From a virus (Duplodnaviria > Heunggongvirae > Uroviricota > Caudoviricetes): a stretch of 64,000 nucleotides of DNA. The position numbers were made by a program, and so were the translations under genes. Within the stretch, counting starts at the first letter, position 1; every line of letters starts with the position of its first letter. The notes below the pieces were generated by a model. That model made no database searches. It saw only the letters and a program-made list of their open reading frames with translations, and was not told where the DNA came from. Positions 2,521-55,584 of the stretch are shown here, piece after piece. The stretch lies in IMG/VR virus record IMGVR_UViG_2565956726_000008. One strand, written 5' to 3'.

Positions 2521-3942
2521 TTAAAAAGATGCGTTATTCTGGTTGTTTCGTGGTGAGAATCGGCTTGCAGACGGACGTTGTTGCATTGACTGGATGCAAG
2601 CTGACGCCGCGCGGGCCTGGTCGCATGGTAAGATGTTGCCGTTGTCGTCAAACCGCTGGTAAACAGTCCCCGTTTTCCCGTGACGGTTTTTCGAAACAAT
2701 GATCTCCATATATTCGCGGGCAACAGACTGTTCATCATAGTACCCGTCGCGGTAGACCATGATGATCCGGTCTGCGTCCTGTTCAAGATTACCGGAATCA
2801 CGCAGATCAGAATTGTTCGGGCGCTTGTTCGGTCGTTCCTCAACGCGGCGGGATAATTGCGCCAGTGCCAACACTGGTACGCGCAATTCTTTCGCCATCA
2901 TCTTCAACGACCATGACAATTGCCCTACAGCGAGATCGTGACGTTCGGCCTTAGCCAGCTTCATCAACCCGATGTAGTCAATCATTACCATACCGAGGTT
3001 GGGATGATCCTGTTTCATCCGTTCCGTTGTGGCGCGTATTTCCTCAACCGTTAATTGAGACGCGTCAACAATCCAAACGTCAAGATTAGCAAGTGCGCTC
3101 ATACCCTGACCAACATGCGCCCACCCCTCATCATCAAGTTTTACAGGATTACGCAGGCAGTCGGTTGATAAATTACCAGCGCCAGCTATAGCGCGTTCAG
3201 TCATCTGATCGAGTGACATTTCAAGCGTGAAGAACAAAACGCCAACCCGCTGATCTTTACTGCCAGGGTAAGGGTGCTCAGCAGCAGCGCGGGCAATCGC
3301 CAGCGCCAACGCAGATTTACCAGACCCAGGGCGTCCGGCGAGAAGTACCAAATCAGTAGCGTTAATACCGCCTAACATTTCGTCGAGCGGTTCTATCCCT
3401 GTTTTGATGTTGTCAGAATTGACACCGCATTCCATGCGCTTGCTTAAAACCTCTGTGTATTCCTGTACCGCATCGCGCAACAGAACAGGAATGATCTTGT
3501 CTTTCGTTACCTTTAATTTTGAATACCGGGAATCAAAATCTTTCATCGTCTCTTTGACGACTTCAAGCGTCCCCGTTTCCAGCTTGTAGCGCATATCGTC
3601 GATGAGTTCTAACATCTGCCGCCGCTGGTGCTCTTCACGTAGTAGCTGCGCATAGCCTTTCAGGTTTGCGGCAGAAGGACACGAACGCGCCGTTTGCATT
3701 AGCGGTACAAAGTTTTCATTGCCAATCTCATCGCCAACCAATAACGCGTCGATAAGATTCCTGTTTCTGGCTTGCGCCCGGATAACTTCAAACGCACGCT
3801 TGTAAAGCGGGATCGTGAACACTTCAGGATCCAGAGTGGCGAGAACATCTTGCGCGTTAGGAGTGAGGCCGCCTAACAGCAGCCCGCCGATAACTGACGC
3901 TTCACGTTCCTGCCGTAGTGAGTTTATTTGCTCGGTTACCAT
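2521..3942 (-). CDS. DnaB-type replicative DNA helicase
   Basis: 473 aa; Walker A GRPGSGKSALAL, Walker B VMIDYIGLM, typical DnaB C-terminal RecA-like core; N-terminal DnaB-N-like region. Confidence 0.85.
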   Translation of the reverse strand: MVTEQINSLRQEREASVIGGLLLGGLTPNAQDVLATLDPEVFTIPLYKRAFEVIRAQARNRNLIDALLVGDEIGNENFVPLMQTARSCPSAANLKGYAQLLREEHQRRQMLELIDDMRYKLETGTLEVVKETMKDFDSRYSKLKVTKDKIIPVLLRDAVQEYTEVLSKRMECGVNSDNIKTGIEPLDEMLGGINATDLVLLAGRPGSGKSALALAIARAAAEHPYPGSKDQRVGVLFFTLEMSLDQMTERAIAGAGNLSTDCLRNPVKLDDEGWAHVGQGMSALANLDVWIVDASQLTVEEIRATTERMKQDHPNLGMVMIDYIGLMKLAKAERHDLAVGQLSWSLKMMAKELRVPVLALAQLSRRVEERPNKRPNNSDLRDSGNLEQDADRIIMVYRDGYYDEQSVAREYMEIIVSKNRHGKTGTVYQRFDDNGNILPCDQARAASACIQSMQQRPSASRFSPRNNQNNASF

Positions 3943-3960
3943 TATGTTATTGCCTCCGGT

Positions 3961-5076
3961 TTACAAAATGGAATATTCAGGGTAATAAACAAAACGCCCG
4001 ATTTCCCCATGATCCGGGCTGTAAATAATCACCGCTGCCATCCGCCGCGACCGCCATCCGCCATTTGTTGAGTAAGCGTCTTTACCCGCTAACGTGCCGT
4101 GATACTCAACAACGCCTAACGATGATTCAATCAGCCGTTGATGATGCCAGTGCCCGCAATGAGCGTAAACCGCCGCAGACTTGCCAAAGTCTTCTCGCCA
4201 GTCAGAGACGCAGGCAGACAACAAATTTTCAGGTTTTTTGATAGTATGACCGTGATGATATGCAAGGAATGTTTTGCCGTACTGTGTGTGGTGGACGATG
4301 GCAGGTGACACATCAACAGTAACGCGCGGTTCGTCTTCGTAAAAAGCCGCCAGCGCCGCACGTAGCCAGATCATTCCTGACTGGTCGTGATTACCTGATA
4401 ACACCTGAATTTCTACATCCTTATGATTCAACATCTTACCCACAGCACGCCGTACCGACCGGATCGCTACATAGACAAGTTTTGCGTAGCGACTATCTTG
4501 ATCAAGAATGTGCCCGCTTGTTGGTGTAACCGGAACCATTCCATCAGAGTGAAGCAGATCGCCACCTAACAGCAATACAGCTTTTTCAGACATCGGCGCT
4601 GCGCCTACAGCGTAGTCAAAGAAGTCATTTAACACGCGCTCAGCGATCCCAGTGTCGTAGCTCTCTCCGCATTCAGCTTTATGAGCAAGCGCCCCGATAT
4701 GCAGATCAAATACCGGATAAAGGGCCAGGCTTTTTTGGAAATCAATTTCCGGCACTGGCACGGCCTCCGCGCGGGGTATTTCTTCCGTGAAGGCGTCACA
4801 AGCAGATTGCATTAGCCTTTCCATTTCATCGCGATCACGGGCTGTTTTAATCCAGCGCATAATCACATTGCCATCTTTATCAACGAGCAATGATTCACCG
4901 TCAACACCGAAGCCAGGAGCGCGGCGAGTGGATATTAAACCGCGCTTCGCCAACCTTGCGCCCAGTCGTTCGACATTGCGTTTTGACATGCCGTATTTTT
5001 CAGCGATCTGTTTATACGTTAAACCGTTGTTATATTCAGCGATTAGTTGTTCATCGCTGATCTTTCTTTGTGACAT
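3961..5076 (-). CDS. N-terminal HTH fused to calcineurin-like metallophosphoesterase
   Basis: 371 aa; N-terminal HTH (LTYKQIAEKYGMSKRNVERL); phosphoesterase motifs DLHIG, GGDLLHSDG, SGNHDQ, HHGH, GHWHH. Confidence 0.7.
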   Translation of the reverse strand: MSQRKISDEQLIAEYNNGLTYKQIAEKYGMSKRNVERLGARLAKRGLISTRRAPGFGVDGESLLVDKDGNVIMRWIKTARDRDEMERLMQSACDAFTEEIPRAEAVPVPEIDFQKSLALYPVFDLHIGALAHKAECGESYDTGIAERVLNDFFDYAVGAAPMSEKAVLLLGGDLLHSDGMVPVTPTSGHILDQDSRYAKLVYVAIRSVRRAVGKMLNHKDVEIQVLSGNHDQSGMIWLRAALAAFYEDEPRVTVDVSPAIVHHTQYGKTFLAYHHGHTIKKPENLLSACVSDWREDFGKSAAVYAHCGHWHHQRLIESSLGVVEYHGTLAGKDAYSTNGGWRSRRMAAVIIYSPDHGEIGRFVYYPEYSIL

Positions 5077-5109
5077 AGTGTTATTTCCTCAGGTTTACAT
5101 TTTGTATAT

Positions 5110-6051
5110 TCATTGGCAGCAAACAATCTCTTTGTATGCTTCTTCTACCATGTAGAATACTTCCGGACTGTAATAGAAAAACTCATTACTACCATTAAAT
5201 TTTACAGGAAAGTTAATTTTATAATCGCTAAAAACCTTATGTATCGTGCTTTCTAATTCTTGTACTTTACAGGTTGGCCCTTCTAACGTTTTCACGATAT
5301 GCAAATCAGGAATTCTAACGCCTGCTTTATGTGCGCTTTTTAATATCTGATTTCTTCGTTTATTCTCCTTAATGCTTACACCAATTTTCATCATCATTGG
5401 CACTTCTGGATCGTCAACCATGATGTAAAGCTTTCCGTGGTTGTGGGATAAAAAACCGTGTTTAGCGCATTTCGGGCAACCTTGCCCGCGTTTAAGGTTG
5501 TTGGGAGTGGCTGACCATTCATAGCTACAAACTTTGCAGCGACACAATACTTTTGTTTTGTCATTAACAATTTCACCAATAACTTCAATATCATGATTAA
5601 CAGTGGAAATAGCCGAAACTTGGTTTTCGTGTGATAACTTTCGATTTTCACAGCGCCTTATGTTATAGCATTTCGGGCAACCGTGCCCATGTTTAAGGTC
5701 ATCAGGAGTTGTCTTCCACCAGTGATTGCAAACATTGCATAGGCAGGCTACTTTTGTTTTGCTGTTAACAATTTTTTCTAACACTTCAACATCAGGATTA
5801 ATTTTAGCAATAGCCGAAACTTGGTCTTCGTGTGATAATGTTTGTTTTTGCGATATTTTTATTGCTTTACATTTTGGGCAACCGCTACCGCGCTTAAGGT
5901 TGTTTGGTATTGCCAACCACAAATGATCACAAACCTTGCAGCGGCATAATACTTTTTTGTCGTTACCTGTAATTTCTCCTAATACATCAACATCATGGTT
6001 AACTTTCGCAATAGCCTTAACATGTTCTTCATGCGTCATCTTGCGCGGCAT
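5110..6051 (-). CDS. Triple zinc-ribbon repeat protein with C-terminal T5orf172/GIY-YIG-like domain
   Basis: 313 aa; three ~67-aa repeats each with C-x-C-x2-C ... G-C-P-K-C; C-terminal GKLYIMVDD...KIGVS resembles T5orf172 motif. Confidence 0.6.
   Translation of the reverse strand: MPRKMTHEEHVKAIAKVNHDVDVLGEITGNDKKVLCRCKVCDHLWLAIPNNLKRGSGCPKCKAIKISQKQTLSHEDQVSAIAKINPDVEVLEKIVNSKTKVACLCNVCNHWWKTTPDDLKHGHGCPKCYNIRRCENRKLSHENQVSAISTVNHDIEVIGEIVNDKTKVLCRCKVCSYEWSATPNNLKRGQGCPKCAKHGFLSHNHGKLYIMVDDPEVPMMMKIGVSIKENKRRNQILKSAHKAGVRIPDLHIVKTLEGPTCKVQELESTIHKVFSDYKINFPVKFNGSNEFFYYSPEVFYMVEEAYKEIVCCQ
5440..6051. repeat. Intragenic tandem triplication, unit about 205 bp
   Basis: Three imperfect direct DNA repeats (each containing catttcgggcaacc...gtttaaggt...) encoding the three zinc-ribbon modules. 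Confidence 0.8.
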
Positions 6052-6201
6052 AATTATTTCCCCTTACCAAATCAAGCAAAACGCCTCAGACTCTCTGCAA
6101 CGCAAAAATCCCACCGCGACACCCGTTTGCACAGGTTGCAGTGTCTTATTGCGTCAGAGGCGCTATCAGGTGGCTAATTTTAGATTTACAGACTGGTAGG
6201 T

Positions 6202-6439: not shown

Positions 6440-7486
6440 TCAAAGAGCGCCAGCGCGCGTATCACGTAGCGTTTTTGGTTTAAGCAGGAAATCAAGTGTC
6501 GCAGTGAAGCCATTGCCGAAGTAAAAATCTGAAGCCGTGTTTTTGAACGTTTCGAAGTAGGCGACAAAGCCGTTAATGCTTTTGTCTTTCAGGTAGTCAG
6601 TGAACGCATAGATCTTGCGTTCAAGATCCCGATCCAGTTCGGCAGGTGGTAACAGGCCGTCAAACGTGCTGTTAAATGCTTCCACCACGTCGGCAGCGTT
6701 TACAGTAGCTGATAGCTTGCGCCATTGCTCAGCGTCAGCCAGATACCCATCGAATTTAGTTACCCGGCAAATGTTGATAGGCTTAGGTGTTCCACCACGG
6801 CTGCGCCATTGCGTCAAAGCCCATTCGATTACTAATGTGATCTCATCCTCCGTGTATGCCTTACGTGTTTTTGTTTCTGTCAGTAGTTCGATAAATGGCT
6901 TAGCATCACGACACTTGCATCCAGCTTTGTCGTTGTAGAAGGCCAAGCAACGCAATGCCGCTTCGTTTACGCCATCCTGATTGACCGTTTTTTGTCCATT
7001 TTCGCTAATACACGAAGTGTATATATCTTTTTCTCTTTCTTCTTCTACTTCTAATTCATGACCCTTTCCTGACCCGGTCATGACCCTATCATGACCTTTT
7101 GGTGTTGGATTGATTAACTTCTCTAATTTTAATTGCTCCTTCGCTGTGTTTATAGCAGCCCTATAAGCGCTCTTAGAAGTCATTGATTGGTCCAGCCTTT
7201 TTAATAACTTTAGGCAAGTTATGTGGCCTTGAGAACATTCGAACAAACCAATTTCGATGAAGTATTTCATCATTTCTTCTATACGTTTTTCAGTAGATCC
7301 GACGTTTCGCGCAATGATTCTCGCGTCATGTCGTAGGTCAAAATTCAGATTGTGCTGATCTACGTCATAAGTTATTAGTTCGAGGCAATACCAATAAAGC
7401 CCGTACCCTTCCAGGCCATAATCTAACAAAACGTTTTGAAGTTTTTCATCGCGGTTCGCATCGCTGTCATGCTTAAACCACTTCAT
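6440..7486 (-). CDS. Replication initiation protein (O-like replisome organiser)
   Basis: 348 aa; N-terminal MKWFKHDSDANRDEKLQ...YGLEGYGLYWYCLELI resembles the N-terminal domain of phage replication initiators; sits between Cro-like gene and helicase. Confidence 0.6.
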   Translation of the reverse strand: MKWFKHDSDANRDEKLQNVLLDYGLEGYGLYWYCLELITYDVDQHNLNFDLRHDARIIARNVGSTEKRIEEMMKYFIEIGLFECSQGHITCLKLLKRLDQSMTSKSAYRAAINTAKEQLKLEKLINPTPKGHDRVMTGSGKGHELEVEEEREKDIYTSCISENGQKTVNQDGVNEAALRCLAFYNDKAGCKCRDAKPFIELLTETKTRKAYTEDEITLVIEWALTQWRSRGGTPKPINICRVTKFDGYLADAEQWRKLSATVNAADVVEAFNSTFDGLLPPAELDRDLERKIYAFTDYLKDKSINGFVAYFETFKNTASDFYFGNGFTATLDFLLKPKTLRDTRAGAL

Positions 7487-7489
7487 AGA

Positions 7490-7747
7490 TCATCCCTCCG
7501 GCAACATCACTACATAGACATCACTGAATGCATCAAGACGACAAACAAATCCTTTATCCATTAACGCGGCGAAGGCATCATGTACCGTATGAACAGGAAG
7601 TTCACACATTGCGGCTACTTCTTTGCGTGATGCATCATGTACCCGTCCTTTGTTATCTGCCTTTTCAGCCAGAGCCATTAAGACAAGTTTTTGAATCGGG
7701 CTATTAAGTTTTACGTTCCATGCTTTACTAATCATGTTCATACTCAT
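7490..7747 (-). CDS. HTH DNA-binding early regulator (Cro-position)
   Basis: 85 aa from ATG at 7747 with aggag RBS (longest ORF extends to 7825 with TTG); first gene of leftward operon, divergent from CI-type repressor. Confidence 0.5.
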   Translation of the reverse strand: MSMNMISKAWNVKLNSPIQKLVLMALAEKADNKGRVHDASRKEVAAMCELPVHTVHDAFAALMDKGFVCRLDAFSDVYVVMLPEG

Positions 7748-8052
7748 CGCATTTTCTCCTATGGTTAGAGTGAACGCGCGGGCGGGCATCCCATTAGCAT
7801 TAGATAGCAGTGACTGACCGCTCAACAGATCCCGCCGTTGCGTGATATTTGTTTTTCGCTTCGCAGCGACACCGGATTTTTAAAGAGCATAAGGTAAGTG
7901 CCTTTTTGTGCCTTCAGTTATCTTTTTCCTTGCGTCTTTGCAAGTATGGCCTTACCTTGTCTGCAAGTTTACAAAATGGAATTTTAAGATCAAGGCTTAA
8001 AATACACGTTTTGTGACTTGCATCAAACTTTTTGAGGTTATAGGGTAGCGAC
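7748..8052. promoter_or_regulatory. Immunity region: divergent promoter/operator interval between Cro-like and CI genes
   Basis: 305-bp intergenic; palindromic half-sites CTTGC-N6-GCAAG (7929-7944), CTTG-N3-GCAAG (7956-7967), AAGG-N6-CCTT (7891-7904). Confidence 0.5.
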
Positions 8053-8700
8053 ATGAAAACAAAATGGTATGACTTAGCAAAGCAGCTCATGCGGGCGCAG
8101 GGCATGAGTCAGGATTCACTCGCAGATCTCATGGGGATAACTAAAGGCGGCCTGTCACACTGGCTGAACGGTCGCCGCGAGCCAAATCTTGAAGATATTG
8201 CGCGGATTATGCGGGCGCTTGGTCGTCGGCAGTTCACTGTTACACATGATGGTATGGTCATTGATGATTCTGTTTCTAATACACTTCAGGCCGCACCGCC
8301 GCGTGATTTAGGTAGTTACCCGGTTATTGACTGGAAGGACACAGTAAACAATATGGATGACACAAGGCGATCAGCATTACCACACGTTACGACTAGCGTT
8401 ATTTGTTCAGATGATAGTTACTGGCTGGTTGCCAAAGGTGAATCAATGAACGCGCCGCAGGGGTTGAGCATCCCGGCGGGGACGATGATACTTGTTGACC
8501 CGCACGCGCCAGCTATTGACGGCAAACTGGTTATAGCCCAGCTTGAGGAAGGGCAGATACCGACGTTTAAACAGTTGATTATTGATGGAGGTCAAAGGCT
8601 TTTACGTTCGCTCAATCCGCTGTATCCGCCAATCCCTATGAATCCAGAATCAAAAATTATAGGCGTGGTGGTTGATGCGAAGATCGTAAACCTGCCATAA
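8053..8700 (+). CDS. CI-type repressor (XRE HTH + S24 LexA-like peptidase)
   Basis: 215 aa; N-terminal HTH (MSQDSLADLMGITKGGLSHWLNG), C-terminal S24 fold with AKGESM Ser motif and downstream Lys. Confidence 0.9.
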   Translation: MKTKWYDLAKQLMRAQGMSQDSLADLMGITKGGLSHWLNGRREPNLEDIARIMRALGRRQFTVTHDGMVIDDSVSNTLQAAPPRDLGSYPVIDWKDTVNNMDDTRRSALPHVTTSVICSDDSYWLVAKGESMNAPQGLSIPAGTMILVDPHAPAIDGKLVIAQLEEGQIPTFKQLIIDGGQRLLRSLNPLYPPIPMNPESKIIGVVVDAKIVNLP

Positions 8701-9640: not shown

Positions 9641-10282
9641 GTGAAAACAGAGTTACATAAAAAGCTATGGACGATTCAGCAAACGCTGAACGCGCCGAAA
9701 AATCAGCGTAATAATTTTGGTGGATATAATTACAGGTCGGCGGAGGATATTTTAGAGGCGGTTAAACCACTGCTTCAAAATATCACGCTGACTGTTAGTG
9801 ATGAAATTGTCCTGATCGGCAATCGCTATTATGTGAAAGCAACGGCGGCGCTAAGCGACGGTGAAGACGTAATAGCGGTAACTGCTTATGCCAGGGAAGA
9901 AGAAAGCAAGAAGGGTATGGACGCCAGCCAGCTAACAGGAGCAACATCAAGTTACGCGCGGAAATATGCTTTGAACGGTTTATTCTGTATAGATGATGCT
10001 CGCGATCCTGATACTGATGCTTACGCGAAGCAGACAGGCCAGCAGCCGCGACAACAGAAAAACCCACCAAAACAACAACCGCAGCAGCAGAAATCGCCGC
10101 CAAATCCTGATGAAGTATTAGCACGTTTCTGTGATGCGGCAGCGAAAGCGCAGGACGAAAAAGCGCTTAAAGATATTTTTGCTAAATGCTGGAAGTTATT
10201 ACCTGAAAACTCAGAGCAACGACAGAAAGCGAGCGACGTATACCAGATCAGAAAATCAGAGCTTAACGGGGAGATGGGTTAA
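9641..10282 (+). CDS. erf: Erf-family single-strand annealing protein
   Basis: 213 aa; by-eye similarity to P22 Erf (LNAPKNQ...YRS.EDILE.VKPLL, VSDEIVLIG.RYYVKATA, GMDA.Q.TGATSSYARKY.LNGLF.IDDA.D.D). Confidence 0.85.
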   Translation: MKTELHKKLWTIQQTLNAPKNQRNNFGGYNYRSAEDILEAVKPLLQNITLTVSDEIVLIGNRYYVKATAALSDGEDVIAVTAYAREEESKKGMDASQLTGATSSYARKYALNGLFCIDDARDPDTDAYAKQTGQQPRQQKNPPKQQPQQQKSPPNPDEVLARFCDAAAKAQDEKALKDIFAKCWKLLPENSEQRQKASDVYQIRKSELNGEMG

Positions 10283-10686
10283 TGAGCTTAAATTCAATTA
10301 CGCTGGGCGGGAATATCGGAAATGACATGGAAGTCCGCTACACACAAAGCGGGAAAGCGATTGGTAGTTTTCCGTTAGCTGTAACGAATGGCTACGGCGA
10401 TAATAAGCGGACAATGTGGGTCACTTGCCTGGTATTTGGTGAGCGTGCGGAAAAATTAGCGCCACATATCCGCAAGGGTGGAAAAATAGTGGTAAACGGT
10501 CGCCTGGATGTTCGGCAATATGATCGGAACGATGGCACGAAGGGTACGGCGGTAGAAGTGGCGGTTAACGAATTCGAATTCATGAACGTTAACCAGCAAG
10601 GCCAGCAGCAGAAAGCGCCACCGCCACAGCAGAATAACAACGGGAATAATCCTCCGATGGACTTTGACGACGACATCCCGTTTTGA
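10282..10686 (+). CDS. ssb: single-stranded DNA-binding protein
   Basis: 134 aa; OB-fold SSB pattern (LGGNIGNDMEVRYTQSGKA...VTCLVFGERAEKL), Q/G/P-rich linker and acidic C-terminal DFDDDIPF tail. Confidence 0.85.
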   Translation: MSLNSITLGGNIGNDMEVRYTQSGKAIGSFPLAVTNGYGDNKRTMWVTCLVFGERAEKLAPHIRKGGKIVVNGRLDVRQYDRNDGTKGTAVEVAVNEFEFMNVNQQGQQQKAPPPQQNNNGNNPPMDFDDDIPF

Positions 10687-54102: not shown

Positions 54103-55107
<1,005 letters not shown>

Positions 55108-55381
55108 CAAAAGCAATTTTTCCGGCTATCTGTATACAAAAACGCCGCAAAGTTTGAGCGAAGTCAATAAACTCTCTACCCATTCAGGGCAATATCTCTC
55201 TTGCAGGTGAATGCAACGTCAAGCGATGGGCGTTGCGCTCCATATTGTCTTACTTCCTTTTTTGAATTACTGCATAGCACAATTGATTCGTACGACGCCG
55301 ACTTTGATGAGTCGGCTTTTTTTTGCCTGTTATTTATCAGCGTCTACCCTTTAAGAGTCCACCCAATGACCGGAGGGAAAT

Positions 55382-55555
55382 ATGACGACACTTATTTATT
55401 TGCAAATTCCTGTCCCTGAACCGATTCCTGGCGATCCTGTTCCAGTGCCCGATCCGATCCCTCGCCCGCAACCCATGCCTGACCCACCACCCGATGAAGA
55501 ACCGATTAAATTGTCGCATCGTGAGCGTAGATCTGCGAGGATACGCGCCTGCTAA
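55382..55555 (+). CDS. small proline-rich protein (57 aa), uncertain
   Basis: ATG with ggagggaaat RBS; PVPEPIPGDPVPVPDPIPRPQPMPDPPPDEEP. Confidence 0.25.
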   Translation: MTTLIYLQIPVPEPIPGDPVPVPDPIPRPQPMPDPPPDEEPIKLSHRERRSARIRAC

Positions 55556-55584
55556 CTTTGCGTCGATGACCACGAGAATAGATT

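Follow-up and report, generated by a model that had tools for sequence, protein, structure and literature searches.

A widespread HTH-metallophosphoesterase and a putative zinc-finger homing endonuclease in the early operon of an mEp021-type Escherichia coli prophage

Two genes between initiator and helicase

The phage DNA analysed here, a stretch of 64,000 nucleotides (IMG/VR record IMGVR_UViG_2565956726_000008) referred to as a whole as the window, carries two large genes between an O-like replication initiator and a DnaB-type replicative helicase. One codes for a 371-aa protein in which a helix-turn-helix (HTH) is joined to a metallophosphoesterase (MPE) domain, the other for a 313-aa protein with three zinc-finger modules followed by a T5orf172 nuclease-like domain (Table 1), both open reading frames (ORFs) lying where the original prediction had placed them. 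The genes have the same orientation, with 33 bp between them, and the helicase starts 18 bp past the stop codon of the phosphoesterase gene. An HTH protein of 111 aa is encoded together with the initiator on the transcriptionally upstream side.

Both genes sit in the early rightward operon of an mEp021-type (mEp_immI) Escherichia coli prophage. The region shares about 89% identity with the mEp021 group, which comprises mEp021, mEp013, mEp515, mEp010, mEp044, mEp554 and MagusPhagus; this is a group of temperate coliphages published as Nus-dependent, non-lambdoid 'mEp_immI' phages, and neither the 371-aa nor the 313-aa gene is discussed in the mEp_immI genome paper.

Table 1. Features of the replication region of the window, with gene orders at comparison loci of other phages (L numbers)
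Feature	Position	Strand	Basis or detail
DnaB-type replicative helicase	2521-3942	-	Pfam DnaB_C E=3e-76 and DnaB N-terminal domain
371-aa HTH-metallophosphoesterase, phrog_704	3961-5076	-	ORF list and profile searches
313-aa putative free-standing homing endonuclease, 3x CapR/DUF4379 and T5orf172	5110-6051	-	ORF list and profile searches
Presence/absence cassette, 980 bp: endonuclease ORF and ~43 bp upstream with ribosome-binding site	5115-6094		blastn junction mapping
DNA tandem repeat encoding the zinc-finger modules	5527-6030		Tandem Repeats Finder; period 201 bp, 2.5 copies, 71% matches
348-aa replication initiator, Lin1244_N N-terminal, O-like C-terminal part	6440-7486	-	Pfam Lin1244_N E=5e-11 and PHROG matches
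111-aa HTH protein	7490-7825
cI-type repressor, divergent	8053-8700
Phosphoesterase-polynucleotide kinase-dNMP kinase order (Webervirus, Yersinia phage, Erwinia podovirus)	L006 4498-6750, L011 3989-6281, L012 3498-6815
HNH genes 3' of the phosphoesterase (mEp021, mEp515, Jerseyvirus, Vibrio phage)	L004 4973-5476, L002 2973-3527, L007 5671-6171, L008 5708-6217

A zinc-finger T5orf172 protein in a variable slot

The triple zinc ribbon and the T5orf172/GIY-YIG-like domain that had been proposed for the 313-aa protein are borne out by Pfam matches above the cut-offs: DUF4379 and CapR each match three times (74.9 bits against a cut-off of 24.5, and 59.8 against 24.2), T5orf172 matches at residues 208-298 (26.5 bits, cut-off 20) and MUG113 also exceeds its threshold (24.5 bits, cut-off 22.3), while PHROGs place the protein in 'endonuclease' families. 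The zinc modules lie at about aa 5-70, 72-137 and 139-204 and are followed by the nuclease domain at about 205-300. The modules are repeats of some 66 aa which align in register without gaps, each carrying CxCxxC...CxxC (cysteines 36/38/41/58/61, 103/105/108/125/128 and 170/172/175/192/195); both the profile matches and the two Cys pairs, some 15-26 residues apart, are as in CapR/DUF4379 zinc fingers. The predicted model has a GIY-YIG alpha/beta fold, finds its best matches in the GIY-YIG nucleases SLX1 and I-TevI, and also matches the DUF4379 protein mt-SAF33. A sequence search of PDB chains with both the 313-aa and the 371-aa protein gave nothing meaningful, and NCBIfam holds a family for neither of them. 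The domain matches and cysteine repeats of the 313-aa protein, like the motif set of the 371-aa protein described below, are far beyond chance.

Across 37 alleles of the endonuclease, Y209, G224, R232, E267, H271 and E290 are invariant and follow the motif order GIY...YIG...R...E, by which, after the published Odn alignment, R232 and E290 are the putative catalytic Arg and Glu. Mean entropy is 0.84 bits in the nuclease domain versus 1.0-1.26 bits in the zinc modules, and the most variable positions, about ten per module, stand in the same register in all three modules, at the loop before the first Cys, the residue after CxxC, and WxxxPxx, LKxG and GxG. The number of modules varies from one in mEp013 (178 aa) through three in the window to about six in mEp021 (495 aa). 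Homologues of the protein are present in 901 phage records from many host genera, T5 included, and are usually annotated as endonuclease or homing endonuclease, with an identity to phage examples outside the mEp group of only 23-45%.

The gene occupies a fixed site at which otherwise collinear genomes differ by its presence or absence. Where the window has the 980-bp cassette, MagusPhagus has 14 bp, the flanks being 88-90% identical, and mEp515 carries an unrelated Bro-N/KilAC-type gene between the same junctions. The replication module is found in 35 of 5,426 complete E. coli genomes, all 35 of which have both the phosphoesterase and the helicase; the slot holds the zinc-ribbon gene in 12 of them, a Bro/KilAC/Ant gene in 8 and a DUF559 gene in 1, is empty in 7, and has a different upstream region in the other 7. 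Close endonuclease alleles (53-72% amino-acid identity, as against 87-91% nucleotide identity in the flanks) are always in this same slot just upstream of the phosphoesterase, and a relative of 41% identity sits in a different context. The slot is a hot spot for accessory and mobile genes.

This variability bears directly on the earlier proposal that the two genes form one functional module, be it for defence or anti-defence or as a nuclease-phosphoesterase pair, which is now very unlikely. The genes are adjacent, co-oriented and closely spaced, close zinc-ribbon alleles always lie just upstream of the phosphoesterase in the mEp-type phage lineage, and the T5orf172 domain gives a weak PADLOC match to the candidate PDC-S57 (E=5.5e-5, 20.9 bits), all of which would suit such a unit. 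However, the zinc-ribbon gene is absent from the slot in 23 of the 35 E. coli genomes as well as in MagusPhagus and mEp515, with phosphoesterase and helicase constant throughout; some 2,000 phages have the phosphoesterase without a zinc-ribbon/T5orf172 neighbour; and in the Vibrio K-series phages that have both families the two genes are about 7 kb apart. The pair does co-occur outside this phage, but only within the same phage lineage and in the same polymorphic slot. Among the PADLOC-DB 2.0 defence models the phosphoesterase finds no match, and neither protein could be placed in a defence system. On balance the two genes appear to be independent of each other, and both are of known kinds. 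A role as replication accessory stays a reasonable, if putative, reading for the phosphoesterase alone.

The phosphoesterase family and its neighbourhoods

The 371-aa protein matches phrog_704 ('DNA repair exonuclease') over nearly its full length (E=8.5e-140, residues 4-367 against profile positions 2-387 of 390). The complete metallophosphoesterase motif set that had been read from its sequence is present, as D124-x-H126, G172-D173-x-x-H176, G228-N229-H230-D231, H275/H277 and G308-H309-x-H311. Conservation was followed through 44 close homologues, 8 phage lineages and 40 representatives at 30-58% identity, and D124, H126, D173, H176, N229, H230, H275 and H311, the metal ligands among them, are invariant down to 30% identity, H309 nearly so. 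The N-terminal HTH, also part of the original prediction, appears in the AlphaFold model as a three-helix bundle at residues 8-44; its Pfam matches are sub-threshold, at E of about 1e-3, and relatives match many HTH families. A beta-hairpin at 56-80 and a helix at 82-98 lead on to the MPE core at about 114-365, which shows the beta-sandwich fold of metallophosphoesterases. Pfam Metallophos (PF00149) is matched by 11 of the 40 distant family representatives, with a best E of 7e-6.

The GDxxH and GNHD motifs are those that we take to be variants of the Mre11/SbcD branch, as opposed to those of protein phosphatases. Similarity to Mre11/SbcD and to the PolD DP1 proofreading subunit is at the level of the superfamily only (13-18% identity), and the N-terminal HTH is an addition relative to all of these. 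Membership in Mre11/SbcD itself was considered and rejected: the 371-aa protein is without the capping domain, and a Rad50/SbcC partner was not found in the window ORFs scanned, the two longest of which code for a tape measure and a J-like tail protein.

By tblastn, 2,044 of 50,697 phage records contain a member of the family, or about 4% of sequenced phages; among them are Drexlerviridae at 60-67% identity, Jerseyvirus at 39-44%, the Eracentumvirus podoviruses, and further lineages among Vibrio, Campylobacter, Rhodobacter, Flavobacterium and Synechococcus phages. When 1.84 billion representatives were searched with a profile, 5,530 clusters (50% identity) came back at E<=1e-3, and the best 150 cluster representatives are almost all of 370-420 aa with a full-length match and a uniform architecture, none of the 150 carrying an informative domain fusion. 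Members of PHROG 704 in Drexlerviridae, Jerseyvirus, Eracentumvirus and other groups share the HTH-plus-MPE architecture and the length of the 371-aa protein at 39-67% identity, and differ in that they belong to virulent phages, whereas the window gene lies in a temperate phage between initiator and DnaB helicase. Close homologues are named 'putative phosphoesterase' in many phages; the PHROG name 'DNA repair exonuclease / putative phosphoesterase' is an annotation only, and a literature search on the function of the family found genome-annotation papers or nothing. Within the phosphoesterase gene, a 131-bp stretch at 4247-4377 has 80% DNA identity to virulent BEK/BEC coliphages, which otherwise do not match here, and may be a remnant of DNA exchanged by temperate and virulent phages.

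Across phage records the phosphoesterase usually has neither a DnaB nor a T5orf172 neighbour. In Drexlerviridae it closes a helicase/VRR-NUC/Dam methylase operon just before the lysis genes, away from DnaB. Genes for a polynucleotide kinase (PNK) and then a dNMP kinase come after it in Webervirus and a Yersinia phage, and in the Erwinia podovirus Tapenade it stands in the series 5'-3' exonuclease, endonuclease, phosphoesterase, PNK, dNMP kinase, DNA ligase. Rhodobacter, Synechococcus and Flavobacterium phages have it beside DNA methylases.

Jerseyvirus and Vibrio phages have an HNH gene after the phosphoesterase. In mEp021 and mEp515 an HNH-AP2 endonuclease gene stands between phosphoesterase and helicase, one that is missing from the window (at about 3943-3985), and the HNH-AP2 genes downstream of the phosphoesterase are homologous across three unrelated phage groups (41% and 31% identity). 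A second lineage of mobile nucleases seems to target the 3' side of the phosphoesterase gene, which, because homologous HNH-AP2 genes follow it in three unrelated groups, appears to be a site where mobile nucleases preferentially land.

Interpretation

The CapR domain is a zinc-finger DNA-binding domain that is also present in a range of putative T5orf172 homing endonucleases (Netter et al. 2021, PMC8096241), and zinc fingers of the CapR/DUF723/DUF4379 type occur, often repeated, in 87% of T5orf172 homing endonucleases, recombination between the repeats altering their number (Barth, Dunham and Seed 2023, PMC10448857). Because it is this zinc-finger/T5orf172 architecture that Netter and Barth report, the 313-aa protein belongs to a described class, and the earlier reading of an unassignable pair is not supported. 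The ICP1 proteins gp174, gp165, gp121, gp53 and gp130 (PMC8096241, PMC10448857) have the same N-terminal CxxC...CxxC repeats (CapR/DUF723/DUF4379) and C-terminal T5orf172 domain, and their genes, like the 313-aa gene, are free-standing beside conserved phage genes and change in repeat number by recombination; the window lineage differs in living in temperate E. coli prophages and in having up to about six modules. ICP1 Odn (Gp88), an origin-directed nuclease, likewise has a T5orf172 domain in which Arg and Glu are conserved; it cuts DNA in vitro, and its Glu-to-Ala mutant is dead (PMC8263062). The window protein differs in using zinc fingers. The GIY-YIG nucleases I-TevI and SLX1 are more remote, with less than 15% identity, T5orf172 being a separate Pfam family of the same clan, and their DNA-binding modules differ.

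On this evidence the 313-aa gene is probably a free-standing gene of the homing-endonuclease type, within the described T5orf172 class, and the phosphoesterase an independent phage gene with a DNA-directed role. The three zinc-finger modules of the 313-aa protein would bind a DNA target, the GIY-YIG-fold nuclease domain would cut near it, and a relative lacking the endonuclease would, in repairing the cut, acquire a copy of the gene in the intergenic slot immediately ahead of the phosphoesterase. Since a 201-bp tandem repeat in the DNA encodes the modules, recombination within it would alter how many of them there are.

The 371-aa protein, the product of a core gene in this and many other phage lineages, is most likely a DNA-tethered phosphodiesterase or nuclease of phage DNA metabolism. 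The HTH would tether it to DNA, where a two-metal centre would hydrolyse phosphodiester or terminal phosphate bonds, the activity perhaps amounting to the trimming or healing of ends during replication, recombination or nucleotide salvage. A DNA-directed role is proposed because the motif variants are of the nuclease type, the neighbours in several lineages belong to DNA metabolism, and the gene has its place in a replication operon. More speculatively, the enzyme might make or clean DNA ends for recombination-dependent replication, a role that is attractive because the phage encodes Erf, SSB, NinB and NinG and no cognate exonuclease was seen among the ORFs examined.

Several observations weigh against this combined reading. 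The window protein itself has no Pfam Metallophos match at E<0.01, and its substrate is a guess because no solved or characterised close relative was found; the HTH could serve protein contacts or regulation instead of substrate binding, and across lineages the phosphoesterase has no constant neighbour. For the 313-aa lineage, nuclease activity and homing are inferred, and the fidelity of close alleles to one site offers no direct evidence that the gene has moved recently. Differences between the alleles are also greatest at the in-register positions of the zinc modules, which is unexpected for a single fixed empty-site target, and their divergence together with this variation suggests an arms race or a weapon as a better explanation than homing to a constant site.

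It is possible, if doubtful, that the zinc-ribbon/T5orf172 protein is a domesticated weapon directed, like Odn, against competing phages or satellites, or else a CapR-like repressor, and does not act, or has ceased to act, as a selfish homing element. The same domain families offer precedents in Odn and CapR, divergence among alleles at the one locus far exceeds that of their flanks, variation at the same positions of each zinc module looks like shifting target specificity, and the gene is expressed from the early operon. The catalytic residues are kept, however, which argues against a pure repressor; a clean cassette at a fixed intergenic site beside a conserved gene is the classic pattern of free-standing homing endonucleases; and no target element for a weapon was identified. 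A bolder version is rather unlikely; in it the zinc array would be a modular, fast-evolving DNA-recognition code of an inter-phage exclusion nuclease able to change targets quickly and, separately, the HTH-phosphoesterase could have a role not anticipated here.

Alternatives to the DNA-metabolic role proposed for the phosphoesterase are all improbable, though not equally so. It is unlikely that the enzyme heals nucleic-acid ends (2',3'-cyclic or 3'-phosphates) together with PNK and ligase, in the manner of bacterial Pnkp and of T4 Pnk/ligase, or that it hydrolyses a nucleotide signal instead. The recurrent MPE-PNK-dNMP kinase order in Webervirus, the Yersinia phage and Erwinia phage Tapenade, where ligase comes next, speaks for end healing, and metallophosphoesterase domains heal such ends in Clostridium thermocellum Pnkp and in lambda phosphatase. 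Somewhat more unlikely is a nuclease that degrades the DNA of the host for counter-defence or host takeover. Its precedent is Gp48 of mycobacteriophage A10ZJ24, likewise a phage-encoded metallophosphoesterase with a role in infection, whose phosphodiesterase activity has been demonstrated and which damages the host genome and shuts down defence genes (PMC12287305), and the family of the 371-aa protein is common in the early or middle regions of virulent phages, sometimes with a dNMP kinase following, as would fit nucleotide salvage. Gp48 is of a different family, though, with motif I at residue 10 and without an HTH, and damages host DNA in a lytic setting, whereas a general shredder of host DNA encoded within a temperate phage's early replication operon would presumably be incompatible with establishing lysogeny; moreover, Mycobacterium lies outside the ten commonest host genera in the tblastn match list. 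Least credible, and close to negligible, is a helicase loader. The gene does sit where lambda P would be, immediately ahead of the helicase, but none of the Pfam, PHROGs and NCBIfam matches is to a loader family, the invariant catalytic residues would be needless in a pure adaptor, and in most lineages the phosphoesterase does not adjoin a DnaB-type helicase. The helicase-loader idea was rejected on these grounds.

Other features of the window

Within the initiator gene, four overlapping copies of the 11-bp TCATGACCCnn occur at 7056-7096 with a spacing of 11 bp. Partly palindromic, they resemble origin iterons lying within the gene of the initiator, an arrangement known from lambda O. The Erf-family annealing protein (9641-10282) and SSB are encoded in a leftward operon (9641-10686). 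The mEp-type prophage ends before about 54 kb and is followed by host-like genes (region 54124-63460), among them those for a CorA-family transporter, a DbpA-type DEAD-box helicase and a PP-loop protein, and by the end of a second, Rac-like prophage with an integrase (58074-59309), RecT (60058-60924) and RecE/exonuclease VIII (60860-63460). The window contains no tRNA gene.

Significance

For annotation, the analysis removes a false 'unknown two-gene system' and gives a concrete reading to a polymorphic slot in prevalent gut E. coli prophages. The same small region draws several mobile nuclease genes, T5orf172 upstream of the phosphoesterase and, in relatives, HNH-AP2 downstream of it, which fits the published idea that such nucleases mark the boundaries of genetic exchange. 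Attraction of mobile nucleases may explain how a 66%-identical phosphoesterase comes to be shared between a temperate phage and virulent T1-like phages. Among phage proteins that keep their catalytic residues but have only a putative function, the HTH-phosphoesterase is one of the more widespread, and deleting its gene is a simple matter in the temperate mEp phages, for which E. coli K-12 is a host. If the zinc array does act as a recognition code, that code might be decipherable as for TALE or C2H2 arrays. The remaining interest of the locus lies in the function of a very widespread phage phosphoesterase and in a modular zinc-finger array.

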